Assembly (NCBI GenBank): GCA_965216565.1
Contig: OZ244170.1
Location: 4,608,001 to 4,672,000, forward strand
Length of the DNA: 64,000 bases
Source of the DNA: Bythopirellula sp.
GTDB taxonomy: Bacteria; Planctomycetota; Planctomycetia; Pirellulales; Lacipirellulaceae
Direction: 5' to 3'
The position numbers and the translations under genes were made by a program. Below, piece by piece: positions 1 to 13,108 of the stretch (its first letter is position 1; every line of letters begins with the position of its first letter). The notes beneath the pieces are model-generated. The model was given only the letters and a program-made list of their open reading frames with translations. It was not told the DNA's origin and did no database searches.

Positions 1-3000
1 ACGCACACACTTCTTCAAAACCTTGGCTATTGCCCAGACGGTCAAGTCCGTTCGATTATAAGTCGACCATTCTATAAGAACAAAATCTTGCTTGGTGCCC
101 TCTACCGAGCCTACGACGCAAACTTGCTATATCAAGAGTACGGTTTGGCATCAGAGCGAAAGGGAAATTCGTATGAGTTACGAGGCGTCCCTCTCGACCT
201 GCTCGATTTCCGTTCGACGCGACGCAAGCAGCTTCTCGCCCAAATGGCGAATCATGGAACATCAGGGGGCAAGGCCGCAGCTGTTGCTGTACTCGTAGAC
301 CGTTCTTCTAAGTCTGACTTGCCGCCTTTGAGTCAACTCCGAGAAAAGTGGCCCGAGGAACACGACCGACTTTATGGATTCAACGCGAAGTACATTGAAG
401 CTTTGCGTGTACCCGTCCGCGACACCAAGCAATTTATTCCTGCCTTGTTAGAGCAGGCTGCCAAAAACGTTGTCAAAGTGCAGCATCATTTTTCAGCTCA
501 CGACTTTTTGCGAGAAGCTCTCTTTGAAGCCCCAGAATACTCCGTGTCTCCTGACGACCTCATCCCTGCTGTGAAAGAGTATCTTGCCGAGTCGGGAAAT
601 ATTATCCCAATCCCCAATCTCTACGGTGGCCAACGCTACACGACTGACCAGGTCCTTCAATTGGAGCACGGCTTGCTAACGGTCCTGCAATCCGCTTACG
701 AAGATGAGGGAGCTGTGCTTTCTGATAAGAAAGTCGATTCCGCTATTGCAGCAGCACAGCAGGAAGCGAAGGAGAAGGGCTACTCACTAACTGACGAACA
801 AATTGCAGGCATTCGCCACTTAACTCAGGACAAACATTCCGTGCGTTTGCTGCAAGGCTACGCAGGGGTTGGTAAAACGACTGCAACGCTTCGCCCGACA
901 GTTAAGGCCTTTCAGTCGGCAGGTTTCAAGGTGGTAGGTGCCGCCTACACGGGGGTCGCCGCTCAGCAGCTCGCACGTGAGACGGGTATCGAGTGCGATA
1001 CAATCCATATGACACTAGCGGACTTTGAGACCGACTGGATGGAGAGTACTAAACGTTATGCCAAGCACACCGCACGACAACTCGCTCGTGCCGCTAGGAA
1101 TCGCAAGACTTGGAAGTACCAGGGTAAGCCCGAGCCCGTGAAGTTTGACTCTAAGACGGTAATCCTAATTGACGAAGCTGGAATGGTTGGTTGCCGCCAG
1201 ACACGAATTCTATTAGAGCGGGCTCAGCTTGCCGGAGCCACCGTGCTATTTGTTGGGGACTACGCCCAACTTGGTGCCATCGAAGGTACTTCAGCCTTCT
1301 ATTCAATGTGCCAGCGTTTCGGGCACGCAAAAATTACAGATATCGTTCGCCAGAAGGAGGCTTGGGCTCGTGAAGCAGCACAACATTTTGCTTCTGGCAA
1401 TGTCGCAGCTGCATTGAAGCCCTATCAAGAACGTGGACACCTGAAGTCGTATGAAGATGTCGATACGACAATGGCTCGATTGATTGAGGCTTGGGCGAAA
1501 GTCGCTGCGTACTCTCCCAAGACTGCACGTATTATCGCTGGAACCAATGACCAGATTCATACGCTCAATCAAATGGCTCAGCAGCGACGACTCGATGAAG
1601 CCCCTGCTTCTGGCTTGAAGCACATCAGCAGGTTTCTGGATATCGAACACTTTGACGAAAAAACGAGCCGAAGTTACGAAAACAAGTGCTACGTCGGAGA
1701 CCGGGTAGTCTTCACAAAGACATCACGGAAATATGGCATTTGGAACGGTGGAGTTGGAACCGTCACGGCTTTCGACGGTGGCAACATAGTCGTCGAACTT
1801 GATGACGGTGTGACCACAAAAGTTCCCGTAGTGGGGGAAAATGCGTTTCGCAATGTGAGACTCGGCTATGCTTCTACAACAGAGAAGGGTCAAGGCAGTA
1901 CCTTTCCGATAGTCTTCACTCTGCTAGCCGGTACCACGATGGATTTGCCGCACAGCTATGTACAGGGAACACGCAGTACTGACTCCACTTGGTTCTATAC
2001 AACCAAGGACCTGTACGACGAACTCCAGGACCTCGAAGAATCCCCTCTTGTATCACAAATGGAGCGGTCAGTTGACCTGTCCCTTGCCGCCGATTTATTC
2101 ACTGCACCGACCGGCTCCGCAAATTCTCATCACGAGCTTCATAATGTTATTCTTGAAGACTGGATAAAACTTCAGAAGCATGGCTCAGCCACGCCTCAGA
2201 TAATTACCCCGACCGTTGGAGAAGCGGCAGAACTGAACGAACGTTGTCATCAGATTAAACTCGCCATGGCTCAGAGTGATTGGGAGCGAAAGAAACGACA
2301 GGAGGAAGAACTTCTTGCAGAGGAAACAGCCGATTTGCCTGACAACCAGTTTCCAGGGGGAAATGACGAAATGGGCGAGGAAACTGAAATGGAACAAGAA
2401 CCTGTCGAGTCCAGCGAAACATCCGACTCCGCAACTGAACTGCAAACAGACAAGCCACTACACGAGGTTGATTGGGCTGCAGGTCTCCAAAAACCCAACG
2501 TGCTGGAAGTCAATGGAATCAAGCTTGTCGCAGGGACGCCGATTCAGTTTACATCCCTTACGCAAGGAGCAGCAATTTACAAAGGTGAAACCGGCACCGT
2601 CTCTCTAGTAGACCGTGCACGCGGGACTTTCTCCGTAATCATGGACCTTGGCAAAAGACTCAAAACGTTCGCTGCTGAAGCAGAAGATGAGTTTCGACTC
2701 AACTACGCAAACGACTATTCTTTCAAGACCTTTCAAACGAGGATGGATTTAGAGGTCACCAGACTCAAGATGATAGAACGAGGACTACCTGCTCCACCTG
2801 ATTCGCTGCTGGTAAACCCTCACCTTTTCCAAAAGTCCGCGAAACCCGCTTACGAGACCGAACATGATTTTCTTCGCTGGAAACCGAGCGACCCCAGACC
2901 GGCTACTATCTTCAGTACCCCAGCAACCGACCTCACTGATATGAACGGCCAGTCGATATTGCCTACTAGTGCTACCTATATCTATCAGCAAAACGAATCT

Positions 3001-3177
3001 CAGCAACACCAAGACGAGCAGCAACGGGAATACGCCCGTAAGGCGGCTGAATGGGCTCTCAAACTACAGGCCATCAACCAAACAATTAACACACATACTC
3101 AGCAGGCGACGTATTTGCAGCAAGTGGGGCATGGAGCTTCGCAAACACAAGTACAAAGCCAAACAATTGGATTCTAA
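1..3177 (+). CDS. MobF/TrwC-type relaxase fused to a RecD-like SF1 helicase (5' end outside the window)
   Basis: Frame is open from base 1 (THTLLQN...LGALYRA, the tail of the MobF HxH motif III region); Walker A GYAGVGKT, Walker B ILIDEAGM, VGDYAQL, RLGYAST.EKGQG. Confidence 0.9.
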   Translation, partial: THTLLQNLGYCPDGQVRSIISRPFYKNKILLGALYRAYDANLLYQEYGLASERKGNSYELRGVPLDLLDFRSTRRKQLLAQMANHGTSGGKAAAVAVLVDRSSKSDLPPLSQLREKWPEEHDRLYGFNAKYIEALRVPVRDTKQFIPALLEQAAKNVVKVQHHFSAHDFLREALFEAPEYSVSPDDLIPAVKEYLAESGNIIPIPNLYGGQRYTTDQVLQLEHGLLTVLQSAYEDEGAVLSDKKVDSAIAAAQQEAKEKGYSLTDEQIAGIRHLTQDKHSVRLLQGYAGVGKTTATLRPTVKAFQSAGFKVVGAAYTGVAAQQLARETGIECDTIHMTLADFETDWMESTKRYAKHTARQLARAARNRKTWKYQGKPEPVKFDSKTVILIDEAGMVGCRQTRILLERAQLAGATVLFVGDYAQLGAIEGTSAFYSMCQRFGHAKITDIVRQKEAWAREAAQHFASGNVAAALKPYQERGHLKSYEDVDTTMARLIEAWAKVAAYSPKTARIIAGTNDQIHTLNQMAQQRRLDEAPASGLKHISRFLDIEHFDEKTSRSYENKCYVGDRVVFTKTSRKYGIWNGGVGTVTAFDGGNIVVELDDGVTTKVPVVGENAFRNVRLGYASTTEKGQGSTFPIVFTLLAGTTMDLPHSYVQGTRSTDSTWFYTTKDLYDELQDLEESPLVSQMERSVDLSLAADLFTAPTGSANSHHELHNVILEDWIKLQKHGSATPQIITPTVGEAAELNERCHQIKLAMAQSDWERKKRQEEELLAEETADLPDNQFPGGNDEMGEETEMEQEPVESSETSDSATELQTDKPLHEVDWAAGLQKPNVLEVNGIKLVAGTPIQFTSLTQGAAIYKGETGTVSLVDRARGTFSVIMDLGKRLKTFAAEAEDEFRLNYANDYSFKTFQTRMDLEVTRLKMIERGLPAPPDSLLVNPHLFQKSAKPAYETEHDFLRWKPSDPRPATIFSTPATDLTDMNGQSILPTSATYIYQQNESQQHQDEQQREYARKAAEWALKLQAINQTINTHTQQATYLQQVGHGASQTQVQSQTIGF

Positions 3178-3179
3178 CT

Positions 3180-5468
3180 ATGGACTATACGCTACCCAAT
3201 GAAGATGGAAAACCGTATGACTTCGCCGACCCAGAGTTTTGGGAAAGCTATGGAGCCGAATCGGCAGCCGCCTTGTGTTTTGCACGCGGATTCCCCCGGT
3301 ATTGGCGAGATGTTGCGGGCTGGTATAGTATGCCAGGACGACACGAGCGGGCTGCTAGCAACTGGCGTCAAGACCACTATTGGAAGCTTGCATCACTGAT
3401 AGAAATACCATTATTCACGGAAGAAGCATTGGGTATCGAGCAATTGATATTCAACGAGAAGCATCTTCGCAAGTTTGTCTCCGATAAAGGTGCTGAGTCG
3501 AATAGAAAGTTAGCAAGACGACGAGGGTACAAGGTCGGTTCATTGGGGAATTCTCACGTTTCTTGCGGACCTCATGCCTACATCCTAGATGACTATTTTG
3601 ACCGCACTAAAGATTTCTCGCTTGACTTATGGGTTGCAATTGCTCGCACTTATGTCGACGCACTTATCAACGCCAACATCTCCCCTCGTTCCATACGTTC
3701 CGGTCTGAAATTACGCGAGCGATTGTTGGATGGAGCCGAGTATCTAGGCCGCACCCGGCTTGGACACCAAGAAATACTTGAGGTAAGTAGTAGCGGGTCC
3801 ATTCGGTGGGGGCCACTGCTTTATGACTGTAGGGACGCGACAAAGCTTCACTTCCTCGTCGTTGGCATGCCTCGTAGCGGCAAAACAACGTTGCTACGCC
3901 TGTTAATCCAAAGCCTCCATCGCGAGCGAAAGACGCGATGCATCGTCTACGATTTCAAGACCGACCTTATCCCTGCCCTCAAACCTCCTGGTATAGATTC
4001 GTTCACCAGTTACTACCATCTCTTGAACCCCTACGACTCTCGTAGCTCAGCTTGGGACGTTGCAAAAGATGTCGATGATAGCTCGGCGGAAACTCTGGCC
4101 TCAATTCTCATGGGTACTGAGCAACAAGGCGGCGACAAATACTTCAAGAGGATTCCACGCAACATACTCTCGGCTACAGTACGAGCCCTCATCTCGAAAG
4201 CAGGTAACAAATGGACGTTGCTAGACCTCATGCTGGCAATCCAATCTGAGAACATTCGCTCTGTCCTTGCCGCAACACCCGAGGGACGGAGGGTCTATAA
4301 CACCAACATCAAAGGTGGTGGAGAATCAGGGACTCAGCAAAATGTCATCAGCGAACTCCATGACTGTTCCCAACGATACCTCAGAATTGCATCCGCTTGG
4401 TCAAGATGTTCCAAGAAGTTAAGCCTTCGGGAATGGGCCTTGAATGACTCGAAAGGAATAGTACTCGGCAATAGCATTCGTAATTCTGCGAGTATCAAAC
4501 CTGTTATCCGAGCCATCATTCATTTCCTTTTTTATGAACTGCTGGATAATACAGCTAAGAAGCCACACCATACATTCATGGTACTGGACGAATTCTCCAG
4601 GCTAGGACTTCTTCCCCAAATCAGCGATGTTATGGAAGCCGCCCCCAGCCAAGGATTGTCGCTCGCATTGGGCATACACGACTTGGAAACGGTAAAAAGC
4701 GTCTATGGCCAGTCTGCTACAGCGATTCTGGGGGCTTGTGGGATGCGGGCGTACCTTCGAAATGAAAACCCGGAAACCGTCCGCTGGTTGTCTAGGCAAT
4801 TCGGAGACCAAGACGTCCTGATTGAGCGTGAGTCAAGTTCTCAATCTGAATCGGAATCTCTAGCAGAAACGGAGGGGGAAGAAGCACGTCGAAGCCAGGG
4901 GAGTACATTAGGCAGAAGTAAGCAGCAAATTACTCGTTCAGCGGTCAGCCCCGAGTGCTTCATGCAGCTTCCCCTTGCAGACGCATATGACGGAATCACA
5001 GGTTACTTTGCGGGGCCAGACCACCCTCCCTATAGAGGAGTGCTAAACGATGAGGTGTTTTCCACCGGTACTAAGAGCGATGAAGACGGAACAGCAGTAC
5101 GCAACTACTTCCTGTGGCATTGCGATGAGGACGAACGCGAATGCGAATTCCTGGCAACTCCGCCTGAGATGTTTTCCCCACCGGAAGATACCTTCTCCAC
5201 ATTGGAAGCTCTCGGTTTCGAATATGACCCAGACCCACATTCAAAACCGCTTCCTACTGAACGACCTAAAGCACAATCAAAGACAGACGCAAACAACGGC
5301 TCTCCTGCCAGCCCAGAAATTAGGCCGGAGGTCCCTGACTCTAATATTGAACATGCACCACACGCTTCCGTAGACATGACAAAGCAAGAAAGAAAGAATC
5401 CGCCACTCAGTGATTGCGTTTGGGATGACGAACTTCAGAATTGGCGACTGAAGACTGATAGCGACTGA
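3180..5468 (+). CDS. Type IV secretion coupling protein (TraD/TrwB-like ATPase)
   Basis: Walker A GMPRSGKT, YDFK, NPYDSRS..WD, Walker B VLDEFSRLG; starts 2 nt after the relaxase stop. Confidence 0.88.
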   Translation: MDYTLPNEDGKPYDFADPEFWESYGAESAAALCFARGFPRYWRDVAGWYSMPGRHERAASNWRQDHYWKLASLIEIPLFTEEALGIEQLIFNEKHLRKFVSDKGAESNRKLARRRGYKVGSLGNSHVSCGPHAYILDDYFDRTKDFSLDLWVAIARTYVDALINANISPRSIRSGLKLRERLLDGAEYLGRTRLGHQEILEVSSSGSIRWGPLLYDCRDATKLHFLVVGMPRSGKTTLLRLLIQSLHRERKTRCIVYDFKTDLIPALKPPGIDSFTSYYHLLNPYDSRSSAWDVAKDVDDSSAETLASILMGTEQQGGDKYFKRIPRNILSATVRALISKAGNKWTLLDLMLAIQSENIRSVLAATPEGRRVYNTNIKGGGESGTQQNVISELHDCSQRYLRIASAWSRCSKKLSLREWALNDSKGIVLGNSIRNSASIKPVIRAIIHFLFYELLDNTAKKPHHTFMVLDEFSRLGLLPQISDVMEAAPSQGLSLALGIHDLETVKSVYGQSATAILGACGMRAYLRNENPETVRWLSRQFGDQDVLIERESSSQSESESLAETEGEEARRSQGSTLGRSKQQITRSAVSPECFMQLPLADAYDGITGYFAGPDHPPYRGVLNDEVFSTGTKSDEDGTAVRNYFLWHCDEDERECEFLATPPEMFSPPEDTFSTLEALGFEYDPDPHSKPLPTERPKAQSKTDANNGSPASPEIRPEVPDSNIEHAPHASVDMTKQERKNPPLSDCVWDDELQNWRLKTDSD

Positions 5469-5521: not shown

Positions 5522-5977
5522 TCACATCGACGCAAACTCTTCCGCGTATCCAATTACAACATGCGGCTTGCCATTCTCTTCGCTCTCTTTCACGTAAAGC
5601 GGCTTGATGCATCCGGTTCCCCAATCATCTTCGGTCGGCAAGAAACATTGGAAGCGGGCCGTCTCGGCTCCAAAGCGTTTTGCTTTCTGCATCGCGTAGG
5701 CTGCTAGCCATAGCACGTCGTTTCCCCGACCAGTAACCGTCTGGAAAGATTTGGCCAGGGGAGCAATCGAGACGATGCTCTTCCAGAGTTCAGCGGTGAC
5801 TGCCACTTGGATACGATAGCGGGCTGGGCCAAAACCCATCTCACGTTGGACCCAACTGGTGACGTTTACCACGAGCCCGTTGTCCAGAGCATGCTGGAAT
5901 GAGTACTCACTCGGGACACTGCTAAAACTCTCGGCAGAAAGGTCGAAGGCTGCGTTGTCGAATTTCTTGATGGTCAT
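5522..5977 (-). CDS. DUF6573-like protein
   Basis: YSFQHALDNGLVVNV...VAVTAELW...GRGNDVLW fits the DUF6573 pattern (recognised by eye). Confidence 0.65.
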   Translation of the reverse strand: MTIKKFDNAAFDLSAESFSSVPSEYSFQHALDNGLVVNVTSWVQREMGFGPARYRIQVAVTAELWKSIVSIAPLAKSFQTVTGRGNDVLWLAAYAMQKAKRFGAETARFQCFLPTEDDWGTGCIKPLYVKESEENGKPHVVIGYAEEFASM

Positions 5978-6210: not shown

Positions 6211-7278
6211 ATGCGACGCAATAAAGGCGACCAGCTTGCTGAAGCGGCTCGACTCAAGGCTCTGACAAACGGCAGCTTAATCGACGTGAGCGATGTGGCC
6301 CATTCGACGGGCATTTCATTGCCAGTGTCCCTGTCACGAGGATTGTGGTCGAGTCTGGTGCGAACGTTTCCCTCTGCACGACCTGGTGATTATTGTTCGC
6401 TAGAGCAGATGCTCAGCCAATTGCGAGGCATTGTCGCAGAGGAATGTCTAATCAAAAATGAGTTTCGCTACTTCGTGCCAGATGAACGACCGACTTGGAT
6501 TGGCAGTGCCTTCCTAGTCCGCGTTCAATTCAACTATGTGAATGACCGAATCGCAGCGGTAATTATCTGCTCTGTCGAGGAGCTGTTTAGTCACAAACTT
6601 CCCCCTTCGCCTGCTGTCATACCGAGTGCGTTGATGGTTCGCTTGTTTCGCGTGCTGTTGCAGTTTCCACTCTGTGGAAGAGGTCCAGATATAGTTCTGC
6701 TAGAACGAATGCGGGAGACGGCAAACTTGCTCATGAGAGCATGTCCGCTGAAAGGTGAGATGTACGATTACTTCAGTCGCTGGCGACCGCACCGACCATC
6801 TGGGTTTTCCAATCTAGAGTTCAGGGCCGTATTGTCGCGGACGCTAGGAGAACTGTTGATTTGTATCGGGGCTTGTGAAACGGAGGCCAATGCTCCGTTA
6901 GTAAACGATTTGACGAAATACCATTTGGCACTCGCTTCGCCGCTGTCCGACTTAGCGGAAATTACCGAATCGCTCGTCAAATTGGCGGCAAGATTGCCTT
7001 ATCAAGAGGGGCCGATTGTGTTTAACTCGTTTCGCCCACTGCTTGAAGCTTGTCTGGAGATGCGATACTCGCTCGACAAAGGTTCGACGACTATTCCTGC
7101 CCAGGCTCTCACAACATTGCGAGTACAGTTTCCTCGCCTGGATGAACTGGTTGTTGGAGCAGACAGGGAGGAGTATTTGCGTCTTCGTCAGTGGTTTGAG
7201 AACATTGACGATGGTTCGCCGTTGGGGAACTATGTGAATCTGGGACGGTGGAAAGGACCAGAGCCTGTTTGGCAGTAG
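6211..7278 (+). CDS. Hypothetical protein with an N-terminal DUF6573-like segment
   Basis: RBS AGGAGGT before ATG; ALTNGSLIDVSDVAHSTGISLPVSLSRGLW resembles the DUF6573 N-terminus; helical C-terminus not recognised. Confidence 0.6.
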   Translation: MRRNKGDQLAEAARLKALTNGSLIDVSDVAHSTGISLPVSLSRGLWSSLVRTFPSARPGDYCSLEQMLSQLRGIVAEECLIKNEFRYFVPDERPTWIGSAFLVRVQFNYVNDRIAAVIICSVEELFSHKLPPSPAVIPSALMVRLFRVLLQFPLCGRGPDIVLLERMRETANLLMRACPLKGEMYDYFSRWRPHRPSGFSNLEFRAVLSRTLGELLICIGACETEANAPLVNDLTKYHLALASPLSDLAEITESLVKLAARLPYQEGPIVFNSFRPLLEACLEMRYSLDKGSTTIPAQALTTLRVQFPRLDELVVGADREEYLRLRQWFENIDDGSPLGNYVNLGRWKGPEPVWQ

Positions 7279-7536: not shown

Positions 7537-8328
7537 ATGGCGATTCCAATGATGCTTCCAATCGAGAAACTCCCTGATAACTTTCCGTACAAATATCTTC
7601 GCCAGCATGTTGAAGCCCACCCCTTCTCGCTTCTGTTCGTGACGATTTGCGGAGCCCATTCGTACGGTTTCGATTCGCTTGATTCCAGCTACGACCTGCG
7701 AGGCGTTCACATACTACCTCTAAAGAAGGTTGGTGTTCCCGACCCTGACCAAGGAGCTGTCGAATCATCTGCCGTACACGATGGTATCAAGATAACCCTT
7801 GCCACGGAGAATACTAAACGGTTCTTTGGCCAATTATTGGAAAACAATGGCTCCGTGTTGGAGCATCTTTTCTCGCCACTGGTAGTGCATACGACACCTG
7901 GGCATGAGGAACTCAAGGAGCTTGCAATTGACTGCATCACCCGTCAACACGCTCGCTACTACCATCAATTAGCAACGGCACAATGGAATCGGCTTCAGCA
8001 CGAAGAGAGAGCTACTATTGAGCCGCTGCTGCAAGTCTACCGCTTACTGCTAACCGGAATTCATCTAATGCGTACCGGAGCGGTCGTAACCGACCTGACA
8101 ACGCTCAATGAAACAGAAACACGGCCAGGAATTGATGAACTGATAGACCTAAGCCTTGCCGGGCCAACAATGTGTTGGCTGGAACCGTCAGACTTAGAGT
8201 TCCACGGGCAGGAATACAAGCGATTGGTTGCAGAGCTTGAGTCAGCAGCAGCGAAATCAGCATTGCCGGAGCTACCAAGTGGCAAGGATGCGTTGGACTA
8301 TCTCATGGTTCGACTTCGCATTGCCTGA
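7537..8328 (+). CDS. Pol-beta-superfamily nucleotidyltransferase (YcgL/RlaP-like)
   Basis: LLFVTICGAHSYGF.S.DSSYDLRGVH, NNGSVLEHLFSP, YRLLLTGIHLMRTG. Confidence 0.85.
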   Translation: MAIPMMLPIEKLPDNFPYKYLRQHVEAHPFSLLFVTICGAHSYGFDSLDSSYDLRGVHILPLKKVGVPDPDQGAVESSAVHDGIKITLATENTKRFFGQLLENNGSVLEHLFSPLVVHTTPGHEELKELAIDCITRQHARYYHQLATAQWNRLQHEERATIEPLLQVYRLLLTGIHLMRTGAVVTDLTTLNETETRPGIDELIDLSLAGPTMCWLEPSDLEFHGQEYKRLVAELESAAAKSALPELPSGKDALDYLMVRLRIA

Positions 8329-8398: not shown

Positions 8399-8911
8399 CT
8401 ATGCAGCTATTGGCAGCTTGGCAGTCTTGCTCGACTCACTGATGCTTTGTGATATCGTCAACACTTCCTGCACATCACGGTGGACGAGCTTCCAGTTGTA
8501 AACAGGCATTTCTTCTCCGCTACTGACAACCGAGAAGATGCCTAGCAAATAGGCCAGTCCACGTTCTAGCTTGAGAGCTTGGCTGGCAAACATGAGTTGC
8601 CGAGGCGTCCGTCCGCCAAACTCTTCGTCAATGTCTCGAATGGAGCGTATGTCTTCCACGACCAATTCGAGCAGACCGCTGTACTCAGTCAGTAGAGAAA
8701 TCGCTTGCTCCCGGTCGACGCGAAGCAATCCGTCGAGGCGGTCGAGCATTTCGGCAACCTCTTTGGCCCGCTCGACCAATCGCTCGCGTTGTGCTTGCGT
8801 GCGAAGCTCATTGGCTTGCTCGGTGAACTCCTCAGTGAATAAGTCGGTATTCTCACGTTGCTCTTGTCTATTTGGCATTGCTATCAGTAGTCCCATTGCT
8901 TCTTCCTCCAT
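8399..8911 (-). CDS. Hypothetical acidic helical/coiled-coil protein
   Basis: 170-aa ORF whose ATG overlaps the upstream stop (TAATG at 8911). Confidence 0.65.
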   Translation of the reverse strand: MEEEAMGLLIAMPNRQEQRENTDLFTEEFTEQANELRTQAQRERLVERAKEVAEMLDRLDGLLRVDREQAISLLTEYSGLLELVVEDIRSIRDIDEEFGGRTPRQLMFASQALKLERGLAYLLGIFSVVSSGEEMPVYNWKLVHRDVQEVLTISQSISESSKTAKLPIAA

Positions 8912-9678
8912 TAAGCAGCTAATTGATAAATCTTCGCTTCAAACGGTTTGACTGAGCAACGTTTCACGCGGACACAGTCGCTTGGAACCACTGGTAGTCC
9001 AGCCGTTTTTCTGGCTTTGTTTACGGCTCGCAGAATTGCAAACATTTGCCGCGTGACCCCGCCATAGGCCTCGAACGGCGAGCACTGAAACTCTCGCTCC
9101 AGTGCTATGGTCGAATGTTTGGACGTTGCCGCCACCATAAAATGATTCTTGAGATTCTGATACGCTCGTCGACTGATACGGACAGATGTTTTGCCGTTAT
9201 GGCCGATGGAGTATCCTCCAAACACGACAGGCGTTTCACGCACATCATAATATTGCCGCAGTCGGCTGATACCATCCTCGCCAACTCGTTCGTGTTCTTG
9301 AAAGAAGCTGTGAAATCCTGCCGTGGCTAACAGCACCCAAAAATCTCGATAGCGAAGATACTGCACATTGGCCAGGGGACGGCCATTGGGGCCATTGCGT
9401 TTAGTGCGTCGGTACCGCGACCACTTGCTTCGAGCGACATCGAATTTTCCGAGGATTCGTTGGTCGTGCTGCTGGGGAGTAAGCCGCTCAGGCACGCGAC
9501 CGCTTACGTAGAAAAAGTAGCGACGGGCAACATAGCCAACGGCCAGTTGCTGCACAAAGCCTTCCAGCGTGGCGGCTTCCCACTTGTAGTTCACTTGTTG
9601 TTTCACGACCCATATCCCACTTGCCGTCACGACGACGACATTTGGCTTGTTATGGGCGAAACGAGCGAGATGTTGCAC
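8911..9678 (-). CDS. Hypothetical basic (Arg/Lys/aromatic-rich) protein; true start may be a later GTG
   Basis: 255-aa ORF with globular-looking segments EGFVQQLAVGY..YFFYVSG.VP, SKWSRYRR, ANVQYLRY..FWVLLAT.G.H.FF; coupled to the downstream ORF. Confidence 0.75.
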   Translation of the reverse strand: MQHLARFAHNKPNVVVVTASGIWVVKQQVNYKWEAATLEGFVQQLAVGYVARRYFFYVSGRVPERLTPQQHDQRILGKFDVARSKWSRYRRTKRNGPNGRPLANVQYLRYRDFWVLLATAGFHSFFQEHERVGEDGISRLRQYYDVRETPVVFGGYSIGHNGKTSVRISRRAYQNLKNHFMVAATSKHSTIALEREFQCSPFEAYGGVTRQMFAILRAVNKARKTAGLPVVPSDCVRVKRCSVKPFEAKIYQLAA

Positions 9679-9969
9679 AAGAAGTGCCAGCCGCTAAGAA
9701 TCGCTTCGAGTTCGAGCTACGCAAACCTCGCAACGTGTATGTTCTTAGTTGGAAGTAGCGTAGTAAGAAGAAGTAGCGGCTGGAACAGCCGACGCTAATT
9801 GTACCTAATTGTTCAAATGAATTGAAAAGAATGGTTTGTTTGAGGCACAAACCATTCGAAAAGCCGTGAACCTTGGTGAGTAAAAACGTTGAGAGCAACC
9901 TTCATATTGAAGTCGCCCGAACATTACTTACCAAAGCAACGTCCACAGCACCTGCATCCCAGACTGAGC

Positions 9970-10755
9970 CGCCAAGCCGAGAAGTAGAATACACGCATTG
10001 CAGCTTCCGCCAGGAAGTAGCAACGGGGACCGCCGAAGCGGCCCCGTTACCGCGACCTGTCTTGGATAGGCACAAAGCCCGTCACCACTTTCGTCGTCGC
10101 TCGTGCCCTAAAGCACACAGATGGTTACCAGCCACCTTGAGCAAACGAGCCCGCACTGCCTTGCACGGAAAGTTGCCAATGGCAACCTTGAAGAGCCTTC
10201 GCCCTTCGCATCGCCGAGACTTTCGTCCCGCTACCTACTTGTGGCACACTCCCACTCTTGCGAATTCAAAACACTTGGCTGACTAAGCCAAGCACCGGGA
10301 GCTAATCTCCGGTCTCGCAAGAGCTTCCCTCTTTAGTCACAGACATCGACAATCGATTCACGTCGGTTAGCAGCGTTAGCTGCCGCTTCTCGTAGATACG
10401 TGCTCGCCGCCAGGCGAGTCGCAGTTTCTAGGCGTTCCGAAGGAACGACTAATTTCCCCTTGCGAACATACAAGCTCAGGGTATCCCACTACGAAAAGTT
10501 GTCCCAGTTCGGCACCGTCTCTCCATTGTCTAACGAGCAAGCCCTTACGGGCCTTTCATGGTTGAGCTATTCCCCGCCTGGTTTCCCAGGACGCCGAAGC
10601 TTGTCATCGCTCCGATACCGTGTGTCTCCACACGGCAAGTCCCCACGCTCGCAACGTTGCACCGTCCGCTCAAAGAGCGGATGCAGGCCCCGTCGACAGG
10701 ATTTGCACCTGCTTTGTCTGCGACGGCCTAATACGACTTGCGTCGCACTAGGTTT
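9970..10755 (-). ncRNA. Candidate large structured ncRNA (about 780 nt; GOLLD/ROOL size class or novel)
   Basis: About 15 stem-loops; on the minus strand the loops read GCAA, GAGA, GAAA (twice), GUAA and cUUCGg, several helices need G-U pairs, and there is a tRNA-like T-arm; no credible protein ORF. Confidence 0.75.
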
Positions 10756-11230
10756 TTCAGAGTCGCCCACGATTCAATTAACTATTGGCGAATTTTTTAT
10801 CGGATAGAACTGTGAGATTACTCTGAATGGAAATTGCTTCGAGACAAAGGAAGCAACAATACTCAGGATTAGTTCACAGAGCCTCCGTCGAACCGGACAA
10901 GCCACTCTCATGGCATCCGGCTCTACGGACAGGCAGCGTAAGAAAAAGCTAATTTCTCCCCTTAGCGTGGTTGGTAAGACCACATTTACCGGGAGCTACC
11001 TCCTATCCAAGAAGTCGCTCTACAAACGTTTGCAGCAGCGATACTTCTCTTATGGCCGCGACGAAGAATTGTTTGACTTATTCGCCTACGATATGTCACA
11101 CCTCAAAGTGAGTCACCAATAACAGGCCAAATATCAGTCATGGGTGATGCCGCACTCTGATATGTCGTCCTAGCTCACGGTGACGATGTATTGGTTGCGA
11201 GCATTGCCTGTGCGACTAGGAGGGATATCT

Positions 11231-11560
11231 ATGAAAACAGTACCGTGTCAGAGATTTTGGGAAGGGGCCGTCGGAATCACACTCACGCCACGCCAGCAAA
11301 AAAGCGGCGAATACTTTTGGACGTTTTCGTTTGTGCGTGCCTACAAACGTAAAGACAGCGAGAAATGGGAGTACGCCCAGCACTATGGGCAGAAACATGC
11401 CGAGGCGTTGGGCCAGGTGATGAGTCGAGCATTCCAATTCATGGAGCAGAATGCTCCAAGTCAGTTCGTTGATGAATGGGAGACAGCGAAGGCTGTCGAT
11501 CCAGCCGTAACGCTGGATGGCATGAGCTTCCCAGCAGCCAACGCGACTGCCTCGAATTGA
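11231..11560 (+). CDS. Small putative ssDNA-binding protein (PC4/Whirly-like family common in mobile elements)
   Basis: RBS GGAGGG then ATG at 11231; FWTFSFVRAYK...WEYAQHYG aligns with the ORF at 12875. Confidence 0.6.
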   Translation: MKTVPCQRFWEGAVGITLTPRQQKSGEYFWTFSFVRAYKRKDSEKWEYAQHYGQKHAEALGQVMSRAFQFMEQNAPSQFVDEWETAKAVDPAVTLDGMSFPAANATASN

Positions 11561-11796: not shown

Positions 11797-12828
11797 ATGG
11801 TGAATTTGACCAAAGCGAGTCGAGAGTTGTTTCGCAGAACTCCCGACGAGCGGTTTCATTCGTTCGACGCCCTGCTTGCTCATTGCCATGAGCGAAAAGA
11901 ACGTTCGGACGAGCATTGGCAGGTTTCGCAGAACCTTCGCATCGAGCAATCAGCTAACAGCTTGCAGATGCGATTGGAAGACGCGGAAGATGTCACAATG
12001 TCGCTTAGCGACTGGAGCTTTAGTCAGCTCTGCAAGTTGTGCGGCGTCCAAAAGGACACCGTCAACAAACTTACTTCCGAGACGGCATCACGCGTGTTTC
12101 GTGACACGATGCCCCACTCACGGAAGCCACTTCAGGTGTACTCGGCTGACGGTACCGCTTTGGCGGTACACAGCTCAACGTACTCGCGTCTGTTTGACGC
12201 CGAAGTTCTCGAAGCGGTCCGCGAGGCCGCCCCCGATTTTACGCCCCCGCCTACTGGTTTGGGTGGAGCAACGGGACTCTATGCCGGTGAACAAGACATG
12301 TTCGCCTTTGGCATCGACCCCACAGCTTGGGTAGAAATCGGCGGTGAGAATTTCGCACCCGGCTTCTTTGTGTGGAATTCGGAAGTGGGTAAGCGTTCGG
12401 TCGGCGTTCAGACGTTCTGGTATCAGGAAATCTGCCAGAACCATATCGTCTGGGACGCCATCGAAGTGGTCGAGCTAAAGCGACGCCATATCGGCAACGT
12501 CCAAGATGCCTTGGACGATGTCCGCGAGACGATTGCACAGCTAGTGAAGAAACGCGACGAACGTCGCGACTCTTTTGCTACTGGCATTAAGCTCGCAATG
12601 GAAACCCCCTTCGGCAACGATGCCGAAGAAGTTTGCAATGTGCTAGGCAAGCACGGCGTTAGCTCCCGACTAGCGGAGCAAGTCGTACAGCTCGCTGGGC
12701 AACAAGCATCGTTTTCGGTGTTTGGCATTGTGGACGCTTTGACGCGGATTGCCGGTCGTTATGAAAACGCCGGTGACCGTTTACTTGTGGACCAAAAGGC
12801 AGCCTCGCTTTTGAGCCTGGCTGTCTAG
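11797..12828 (+). CDS. DUF932 domain-containing protein
   Basis: RBS GAGGAG; LTKASRELFRRTPDERF, DWSFSQLC, GFFVWNSEVG, C.NHIVW..RRH.G. Confidence 0.8.
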   Translation: MVNLTKASRELFRRTPDERFHSFDALLAHCHERKERSDEHWQVSQNLRIEQSANSLQMRLEDAEDVTMSLSDWSFSQLCKLCGVQKDTVNKLTSETASRVFRDTMPHSRKPLQVYSADGTALAVHSSTYSRLFDAEVLEAVREAAPDFTPPPTGLGGATGLYAGEQDMFAFGIDPTAWVEIGGENFAPGFFVWNSEVGKRSVGVQTFWYQEICQNHIVWDAIEVVELKRRHIGNVQDALDDVRETIAQLVKKRDERRDSFATGIKLAMETPFGNDAEEVCNVLGKHGVSSRLAEQVVQLAGQQASFSVFGIVDALTRIAGRYENAGDRLLVDQKAASLLSLAV

Positions 12829-12874: not shown

Positions 12875-13108
12875 ATGTCGGAAAACAATCGACCCGTTCA
12901 TCAAGTCCGTATTGGTAAAATTAAGGCCGCTGTTTTTGAGAACGGCGACAACGCTCCTCGCAAGGTCCAGTTCACCGCCCTCTACAAAGAAGGAGATGAG
13001 TGGCGAGGTTCAGCTAGTTTTGCTCGTGAGGATTTGCCGTTGCTTATGAAAGTAGCGGACCAAGTCCACAGTTACCTGTACGAGCAGAACGGTTCTGCTG
13101 GCCAGTAA
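12875..13108 (+). CDS. Small putative ssDNA-binding protein (PC4/Whirly-like)
   Basis: RBS AAGGAG; PVHQVRIGKIKAAVFEN...LYKEGDEWRGSASFAREDLPLLMKVADQVH. Confidence 0.7.
   Translation: MSENNRPVHQVRIGKIKAAVFENGDNAPRKVQFTALYKEGDEWRGSASFAREDLPLLMKVADQVHSYLYEQNGSAGQ

Follow-up and report, generated by a model that had tools for sequence, protein, structure and literature searches.

A predicted circularly permuted group II ribozyme followed by the genes of a probable remote AcpG protein and an acidic partner on a planctomycete conjugative element

Circularly permuted (CP) group II ribozymes were introduced by Roth et al. in 2021 as RNAs of ~900 nt, in which the group II domains (D1 to D6) follow each other in the order D5-D6-D1-D2-D3-D4 and which release a small circle together with a branched RNA (PMC8637638). 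The published CP introns are split within D4, which in canonical introns is the site of the protein open reading frame (ORF) (PMC13717195), and the founding members are active in vitro (PMC8637638, PMC13717195). The only recurrent partner of these ribozymes is AcpG (TTHC007), a protein of ~260 aa which frequently adjoins CP RNAs and for which Roth et al. detected no homology with proteins of any known class (PMC8637638). Among the large ribozyme classes of bacteria, CP group II RNAs belong to the few still lacking a known biological role. Here we describe a locus of Bythopirellula sp. (GCA_965216565.1, contig OZ244170.1, forward-strand positions 4,608,001-4,672,000; this whole stretch of 64,000 nt is called the window, and positions given below are window positions). 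In our opinion it is likely to be a self-contained module on an integrated conjugative element, in which a CP group II ribozyme gene precedes, on one strand, the genes of its cognate proteins; the first of these would encode a relic, maturase-like AcpG.

A first-pass annotation of the window had proposed a possible undescribed ribonucleoprotein (RNP) system made up of a large structured RNA and a coupled operon for a basic 255-aa and an acidic 170-aa protein. The structured region could be confirmed and exceeds chance by far, as dozens of loci conserve it and compensatory base changes occur; its limits were drawn too narrowly, since it starts at ~11037 and not at 10755. Judged by its sequence, the large RNA is a CP group II self-splicing ribozyme of the class described in 2021. 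Rfam RF00029 (group II D5-D6) matches positions 10925..10799 on the minus strand with 48.1 bits (cut-off 40), and D5-D6 in front of a D1-like body is the signature of CP group II ribozymes. D5 and D6 (10923..10801) are located upstream of the region first called structured and were therefore missed. The novelty of the system was not borne out, because both the ribozyme class and the AcpG family, to which we assign the 255-aa protein with moderate confidence, were published in 2021 (PMC8637638). The RNA, its parts and the two genes behind it are:

9829..11037, minus strand: whole CP group II ribozyme gene, supported by nhmmer across loci and Rfam RF00029
10926..11037, minus strand: 5' segment ahead of D5, conserved in alignments
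10890..10923, minus strand: D5, the catalytic hairpin, with AGC triad and 2-nt bulge (Rfam alignments, covariation)
10801..10887, minus strand: D6 with the bulged branch-point A10805 (covariation); the 3' splice site follows AU 10800-10799
10769..10798, minus strand: 30-nt exon (linker), flanked by the 3' splice site ...CCGAU/ and the 5' splice site /GGGCGA, both with invariant motifs (slashes mark splice sites)
9994..10768, minus strand: 5' splice site at G10768 (GGGCGAC), then the D1-D2-D3 and D4-arm region
9829..9857, minus strand: conserved 11-bp hairpin and U-rich tract, either a 3'-terminal stem of the RNA or a terminator/attenuator
9679..9791, minus strand: conserved leader of the 255-aa gene (small hairpin, CU-rich block, start-codon context)
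8911..9678, minus strand: AcpG-like basic protein, 255 aa, GTG start, with a predicted degenerate reverse transcriptase (RT)/maturase fold
8399..8911, minus strand: acidic helical partner protein, 170 aa (probably 165 aa from ATG 8896)

Conservation was followed in 81 loci, namely the best 80 of 327 confirmed loci with relatives of the 255-aa protein and the plasmid pK2D_1 (L002), and the RNA alignment statistics refer to 53 distinct sequences from these loci. Each of the 14 D5 pairs is of a standard type in 46-50 of 50 distinct sequences; three are invariant and the rest show up to six pair types, and A-G-C at 10922-10920 is likewise present in 46-50 of 50. In D6, 12 pairs were tested; each of them is of a standard type in 50-53 of 53 sequences and is supported by covariation, with as many as six pair types. 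The branch-point A10805 and the AU at 10800-10799 are invariant (53/53), and so is GGGCGA at 10768-10763 in 52-53 of 53 sequences. Approximately 780 nt of conserved structured RNA are found 3' of the GGGCGA motif; this D1-D4 side was assigned as one conserved region. The core kept in distant relatives spans ~11037..9994, and the 3' limit is uncertain, between ~9994 and 9829. By position only, and by analogy with the class, the segment 10926..11037 may contain the stems P1 and P2 together with one of the two D4 halves. The order read along the strand is (D4 half)-D5-D6-exon-D1-D2-D3-(D4 half), in which the D4 halves and the separate D1, D2 and D3 are putative. On either strand, the ORFs within 9829..11037 are short overlapping frames of 53-137 aa, which we took for chance frames. 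Two candidate features were rejected. The sequence GUGCGAC at 10748 was considered as 5' splice site, but the alignment puts 10748 in a variable hairpin, while GGGCGAC at 10768 is the one that is conserved. Pairing of the P1 loop with the 3' end in a pseudoknot has support in some relatives, but L008 contradicts it, and it was dropped.

The same arrangement of splice sites is present in the founding members, for which the RNA coordinates were taken from Data S1 part 1 of PMC8637638. The window, Gdi-1 and Thermus pTT8 have the junction motifs ...CUAUC..AU/ linker /GGGCGACC.GGACAG in common: the Gdi-1 junction reads ...UUCGACCCAAU/ 74 nt /GGGCGACGUGGACAC, and that of Thermus pTT8 ...GGUCUAUCGCAAU/ linker /GGGCGACCCGGACAG. 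The cryo-electron microscopy paper on Gdi-1 names G209 and G210 at the branch (PMC13717195), and these correspond to the first two G of the 5' splice motif if the numbering starts at the RNA start of Data S1. With CP group II ribozymes the window RNA shares the D5-D6-linker-D1..D4 order, the AGC triad and the bulge in D5, the bulged branch A in D6, the AU 3' splice site and the G(G/U)GCGA 5' splice site around a short linker, and the lack of an ORF inside the RNA. Also shared is the location on plasmids and conjugative elements, adjoining a coupling-protein gene as in the case of Gdi-1. There are also differences. In the window clade, D6 is larger and contains a variable inserted hairpin; the hosts are Planctomycetota and other phyla outside the taxon list of Data S1 part 1; and the partner gene lies, with few exceptions, downstream on the same strand, whereas its orientation is variable in the published class. 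Further, the exon of Gdi-1 comprises 74 nt by our reading, in contrast to 30 nt in the window and down to 15 nt in relatives.

By analogy with the published chemistry of the class, the bulged A10805 would attack the 5' splice site before G10768, and the freed 3'-OH of the exon would then attack the 3' splice site after U10799. The predicted outcome is a circle made of the 30-nt exon and a branched, "T-shaped" RNA. In the relatives the exon length ranges from 15 to 235 nt with a median of 24 nt. Exons of just 15 nt are predicted at the loci L003, L004, L008 and L038; this seems very small for an RNA circle, and the completion of back-splicing in those members is questionable.

The RNA could also be what decay or rearrangement has left of an ordinary group II intron, without activity of its own, which would agree with the facts that the D5-D6 part alone reaches an Rfam family and that no group-II-D1D4 family is matched. 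We hold this explanation for highly improbable. In 53 distinct sequences the catalytic and splice-site nucleotides are invariant and D5/D6 show compensatory changes, ~1 kb is conserved across phyla, and the junction motifs are the same as in members which are active in vitro (PMC8637638, PMC13717195). Moreover, neither of the Pfam families RVT_1 and GIIM is matched in the genome of this Bythopirellula, so that no intron protein is seen which could seed fragments.

The evidence for a ribozyme with a partner of its own comes from the linkage between the RNA and the 255-aa gene. By single-sequence nhmmer, the RNA core was found directly upstream of the gene and on the same strand in 58 of the 81 loci, and profile nhmmer added three more. 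At nine of the 81 loci the upstream DNA was too short to test, and the structured RNA is therefore present upstream of the homologs in 61 of 72 testable loci. A search with RF00029 at the 14 loci without nhmmer match by that first approach returned nothing, which is of little weight since the model is also blind to the Thermus RNA: it misses this genuine CP RNA. RNA first and ORF second on one strand is the order seen at protein identities between 32% and 93%, both on plasmids and on chromosomes of several phyla; the plasmid pK2D_1, with RNA upstream, is at 32%. In the own genome of the window, which has 5.2 Mb, all four protein copies have a full-length RNA upstream on the same strand, despite their divergence (32-40% identity). 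The three further modules, each with a CP ribozyme followed by an AcpG-like ORF on one strand, are located at:

G000:C1 ~550577-553134: CP ribozyme and AcpG-like module
G000:C1 ~1445207-1447347: CP ribozyme and AcpG-like module
G000:C1 ~1401488-1403611: CP ribozyme and AcpG-like module

This genome (94% complete) has no match to Pfam RVT_1 or GIIM anywhere despite its four CP group II RNAs, and consequently no canonical intron RT is available in trans. Of 81 genomes sampled evenly from the class, 12 carry both RNA and protein, one only the protein, one only the RNA, and 67 neither; the protein of the protein-only genome is a fragment with three stops, and in the RNA-only genome 8000 bases were outside the search.

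Five of the 11 loci without adjacent RNA belong to one clade, at 60-65% protein identity. These five were followed into their genomes (L043, L044, L046, L053, L055 and L072 were left out), and in four of the five a full-length RNA was found elsewhere, at 73-76% identity. In one of them, G003, the RNA lies 14.4 kb upstream on the same strand, separated from the AcpG-like operon by an insertion of three large genes on the reverse strand (L103, G003:C15:656500-675500). They encode proteins of 1756, 1118 and 1489 aa; the last one is a Strawberry-notch-like helicase (AAA_34 and Helicase_C_4), and the two others have no Pfam family. Taken together, a functional tie between the RNA and the basic protein on a mobile element, as the first-pass annotation had supposed, is backed by strong genetic linkage, while the claim of a new system is not. 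Because the relatives do not count as independent and a single mobile element carries both genes, the linkage shows inheritance as a unit rather than binding.

Two conserved sequences lie between the RNA and the 255-aa gene. The hairpin at 9857..9829 is terminator-like by pattern scan, and in the window it is followed by a U-rich tract. It is kept in eight close RNA-bearing sequences (the window and seven loci) with one compensatory pair, while the U tract is not conserved, and it is absent from both RNA-less loci that were aligned. The hairpin probably belongs to the 3' end of the RNA, the alternative being a terminator or attenuator. The leader at 9679..9791 is conserved even in relatives with the RNA kilobases away. 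It contains a CU-rich block, CUACUUCUUCU...GCUACUUCCAACUAAGAACAUACA, ahead of the 255-aa gene. This block (9735..9791, with repeated CUACUUC) is strongly conserved in front of the AcpG-like start codon and could serve as a promoter, as a translational operator or for the binding of a protein. The homologous start codon is ATG in L010 and GTG in the window.

Both ORFs are present with the peptides originally given, at 8911..9678 and 8399..8911 on the minus strand, and their overlap at TAATG could be confirmed: in the junction GCTGCTTAATGGAGGAAGAAGCAATG the TAA stop and the ATG overlap by one base. The calculated isoelectric points are 10.4 for the 255-aa and 4.6 for the 170-aa protein. That neither could be assigned to a named family also holds, as there was no match in Pfam, PHROGs, NCBIfam or PADLOC. 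The family of the 255-aa protein comprises 391 clusters at 90% identity and 1608 representatives at 50% identity (E up to 0.001), and its 327 confirmed loci are from one-genome-per-species contigs. According to the record titles, the hosts are mostly Planctomycetota, with some Acidobacteriota, Verrucomicrobiota and others.

Based on profile comparisons with the Thermus family and with the AcpG of Gdi, we classify the 255-aa protein with moderate confidence as a remote AcpG. The hhalign probability of the family profile is 83.8% against the Gdi AcpG (E 7.9e-6) and 75.7% against the Thermus AcpG family (E 2.4e-5, collinear over 151 columns), and the Gdi AcpG links to the Thermus family at 94.8%. 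In common with the AcpG of Thermus and Gdi, the protein has ~255-265 aa, is encoded beside a CP group II RNA and gives a collinear profile match, and it shares with Thermus AcpG the predicted fold and the best structural match (6me0_C). A further gene follows close behind in all cases; it overlaps acpG in pTT8 and Gdi and either overlaps or is at most 13 nt away in the window. In contrast to Thermus and Gdi, where the orientation is divergent, the window gene is on the same strand as the RNA and directly downstream of it. The window clade further differs by a conserved N-terminal stretch (MQH..HNK.N), a C-terminal LAA and an acidic partner of its own. Both proteins of the window end in -AA (YQLAA at 8911..8925 and LPIAA at 8399..8413); among the aligned homologs, most near-clade AcpG-like proteins end with LAA, and nearly all acidic partners with xAA. 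Such an ending resembles the end of the ssrA degradation tag, and the -AA termini could mean proteolytic control.

The structure predicted for the 255-aa protein by AlphaFold2 (pLDDT 85.4, pTM 0.78) suggests a palm and thumb (X) fold, for which the best matches are group II intron RTs. In Foldseek, ranks 1-20 (E <0.04) are all RTs, headed by the group II intron RT 6ar3 (E 7.9e-4, prob 1.0); the RTs of G2L4, retrons and DRT9 and further group II intron RTs come next, and lower rows contain telomerase as well as viral RNA polymerases. VIA-align gave as best match the group II intron RT 6me0_C, with Z 8.9 and a root-mean-square deviation (rmsd) of 7.2 A over 189 residues, then G2L4 RT (8.1), the RT of a diversity-generating retroelement (DGR; 8.0) and 7uim_D (7.8), and Prp8-containing spliceosome entries at rows 7, 9 and 42. 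The AlphaFold model of Thermus AcpG (pLDDT 91.3, pTM 0.88) has the same best match, 6me0_C, with Z 8.5 and rmsd 4.2 A over 188 residues; its next RT rows are 7uim_D (7.7), G2L4 (7.5), DRT9 (7.4) and DGR (7.2), with short helical-bundle matches interleaved. The matches start near RT residue 100 and run through the thumb, and thus the N-terminal fingers are missing.

No catalytic Asp of motif A or YxDD is conserved in the 255-aa family. In the hairpin Y107-L-R109-Y-x-x-F-W-V-L-L, the turn (111-112) is variable in the alignment, and the only conserved Asp residues, D72 and D145, are both away from it; the Thermus AcpG family has no invariant Asp. In a lone hhalign alignment, which is not significant, Y-L-R-Y..F-W-V-L-L falls on V-R-Y-A-D-D and F-G-G-Y on F-L-G-F. 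In comparison to group II intron proteins (6me0_C, the GsI-IIC RT 6ar3 and maturase-only derivatives), the 255-aa protein is likewise basic with a predicted palm-plus-thumb structure, and its gene adjoins the D4 arm of a group II-type RNA. Unlike these proteins, it lacks ~100 N-terminal finger residues, YADD or any other conserved catalytic Asp, a DNA-binding or endonuclease domain and significant sequence similarity, and its gene is not enclosed in D4. From these models we consider it fairly probable that the 255-aa protein is a polymerase-dead palm-plus-thumb relic.

The fold matches include the RTs of retrons, DRT2, DRT9 and DGR, which work with dedicated non-coding RNAs. One may therefore think of an active, highly diverged polymerase which copies the RNA circle or the branched RNA in a retron- or DRT-like manner, with the module serving the element in defence or anti-defence; rolling-circle copying would go well with a small circle, and the mobile-element context would fit as well. 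We consider this very unlikely, because no Asp pair is conserved at the hairpin in register with YADD, the Thermus family is equally devoid of an invariant Asp, the fingers are missing, and no PADLOC family is matched.

For the acidic protein, the second ATG at 8896 is probably the real start, because it is preceded by GGAGG at a distance of 8 nt and the homologs are mostly of 165 aa. With either start the gap between the two genes is at most 13 nt. A protein atlas search with it returned no usable match. The protein has 71 homolog clusters, all with at least 44% identity, and its gene is located downstream of the AcpG-like gene in 14 of the 81 loci, all from the near clade; in the other clades, unrelated genes follow the AcpG-like gene, and there is no conservation outside the near clade. 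About 10 of the listed clusters, with 403-419 aa, look like fusions of both proteins, and in the four long forms which were read (403-415 aa) an AcpG-like part is joined to a clear homolog of the acidic protein. The coupling of the two ORFs, originally read from the TAATG overlap, is in this way borne out by natural fusions. The fusions argue for a physical complex of both proteins, in which the acidic protein would be a clade-specific subunit.

Several results weigh against a ribozyme module with a relic maturase-like cofactor. A sequence-only profile of the RNA clade of the window did not detect the Thermus or Gdi RNAs, and for the pairing between exon-binding site 1 and intron-binding site 1 (EBS1-IBS1) a search by complementarity and alignment columns gave no consistent partner. 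The RNA is missing inside the locus at 11 of the 72 testable loci. A terminator-like hairpin lies between RNA and ORF, and the leader is conserved where the RNA is distant, which makes their co-transcription uncertain. BLASTP of the 255-aa protein against the AcpG of Thermus pTT8 found no match, and the AcpG link is based on hhalign probabilities of 76-84%, which is below 95%. Regarding the fold, neither Pfam RVT_1 nor GIIM matches the 255-aa protein at E up to 0.1; seven planctomycete group II intron proteins, compared with either family by hhalign, gave a probability of 0.1%; and a profile search of PDB sequences with the 255-aa family returned nothing at E up to 10. The top Foldseek match of Thermus AcpG is a group II intron RT with E 0.064 only, and Z values of 8-9 are middling on the scale of VIA-align, with an rmsd that is high for the 255-aa alignments.

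Some of these points, namely the loci without adjacent RNA, the Z values and the non-significant hhalign result, would suit an explanation in which the RNA is a CP ribozyme and the two proteins are ordinary cargo or maintenance genes travelling beside it, the RT-like match reflecting a generic resemblance of palm-plus-helical-bundle structures. Roth et al. also report many CP RNAs without AcpG nearby and point out that association need not mean physical interaction (PMC8637638). Nevertheless, we judge this explanation unlikely. Against it stand the order RNA-then-ORF, which is maintained down to 32% identity, across replicon types and phyla and in four diverged paralogous copies of one genome, and the RNA found elsewhere in four of the five "RNA-less" genomes tested, including the one 14.4 kb upstream in G003. 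The co-occurrence at the level of genomes (12 with both, one and one with a single partner) also speaks against mere cargo, as does the top structural match shared by two families that are unrelated by BLAST.

We return to the ribozyme module with a cognate protein. In such a module the 255-aa protein, as a distant AcpG, would be the shrunken relic of an intron-encoded RT in which, as remote homology and predicted structure suggest, palm and thumb were kept and the polymerase aspartates were lost. It may act like a maturase that binds its own RNA and stabilises either the active fold or the branched RNA. The gene has exactly the position expected of the intron ORF after permutation inside D4: tandem duplication and truncation of an ORF-bearing intron would leave the ORF behind the RNA's 3' end, in the same orientation. 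Going further, we tentatively propose, holding it slightly less probable than the contrary, that AcpG proteins in general are degenerate, polymerase-dead descendants of the RT of the ancestral intron and that the planctomycete layout (D4 half)-D5-D6-exon-D1-D2-D3-(D4 half)-ORF preserves the original product of duplication and truncation. CP ribozymes would then be RNPs with a maturase-like cofactor, plus an acidic second subunit in the window clade. If this is true, it could explain the difficulty of seeing processing in vivo without the protein, and a relic maturase at the permutation breakpoint would show in concrete terms how a mobile intron could have evolved into a domesticated generator of RNA circles. 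We found neither a fold assignment for AcpG nor a protein cofactor for CP group II RNAs in the literature searched, to which subscription papers do not belong, and by term searches AcpG is not mentioned in two 2026 structural papers. To the published class, our analysis adds a predicted RT-like fold in two AcpG families and the collinear position at the D4 break, as well as four cognate pairs in a genome without RVT_1 or GIIM match and the clade-specific, fused or coupled acidic subunit. The planctomycete clade is apt for testing the effect of the protein, as the RNA-ORF order is nearly fixed and four diverged cognate pairs exist in one genome, in which the families marking canonical RTs and maturases, RVT_1 and GIIM, are not matched.

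As read from the sequence, the neighbourhood is an integrated conjugative element. The convergence of the two-gene operon on a nucleotidyltransferase gene and its divergence from the DUF932 block were confirmed. The neighbouring genes in the window are:

1..3177: TrwC-type relaxase/helicase, part of the conjugative element
3180..5468: TraG/TrwB coupling protein, part of the conjugative element
5522..5977, minus strand, and 6211..7278, plus strand: two divergent DUF6573-like ORFs, weak matches below cut-off
7537..8328, plus strand: RlaP-family nucleotidyltransferase, convergent with the two-gene operon
11797..12828: DUF932 protein, divergent from the two-gene operon

The pair of DUF6573-like ORFs sits between the coupling-protein gene and the RlaP nucleotidyltransferase gene. 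Small ORFs at 11180..11560 and 12875..13108, both on the plus strand, flank the DUF932 gene; they had been labelled SSB-like in the first-pass annotation and have no Pfam or NCBIfam family above noise. Outside this species, a 4.0-Mb planctomycete genome of the phylum sample (G037) contains 47 GIIM matches, many of them with identical scores and 433-aa open frames, as if a single canonical group II intron had multiplied there in a burst.

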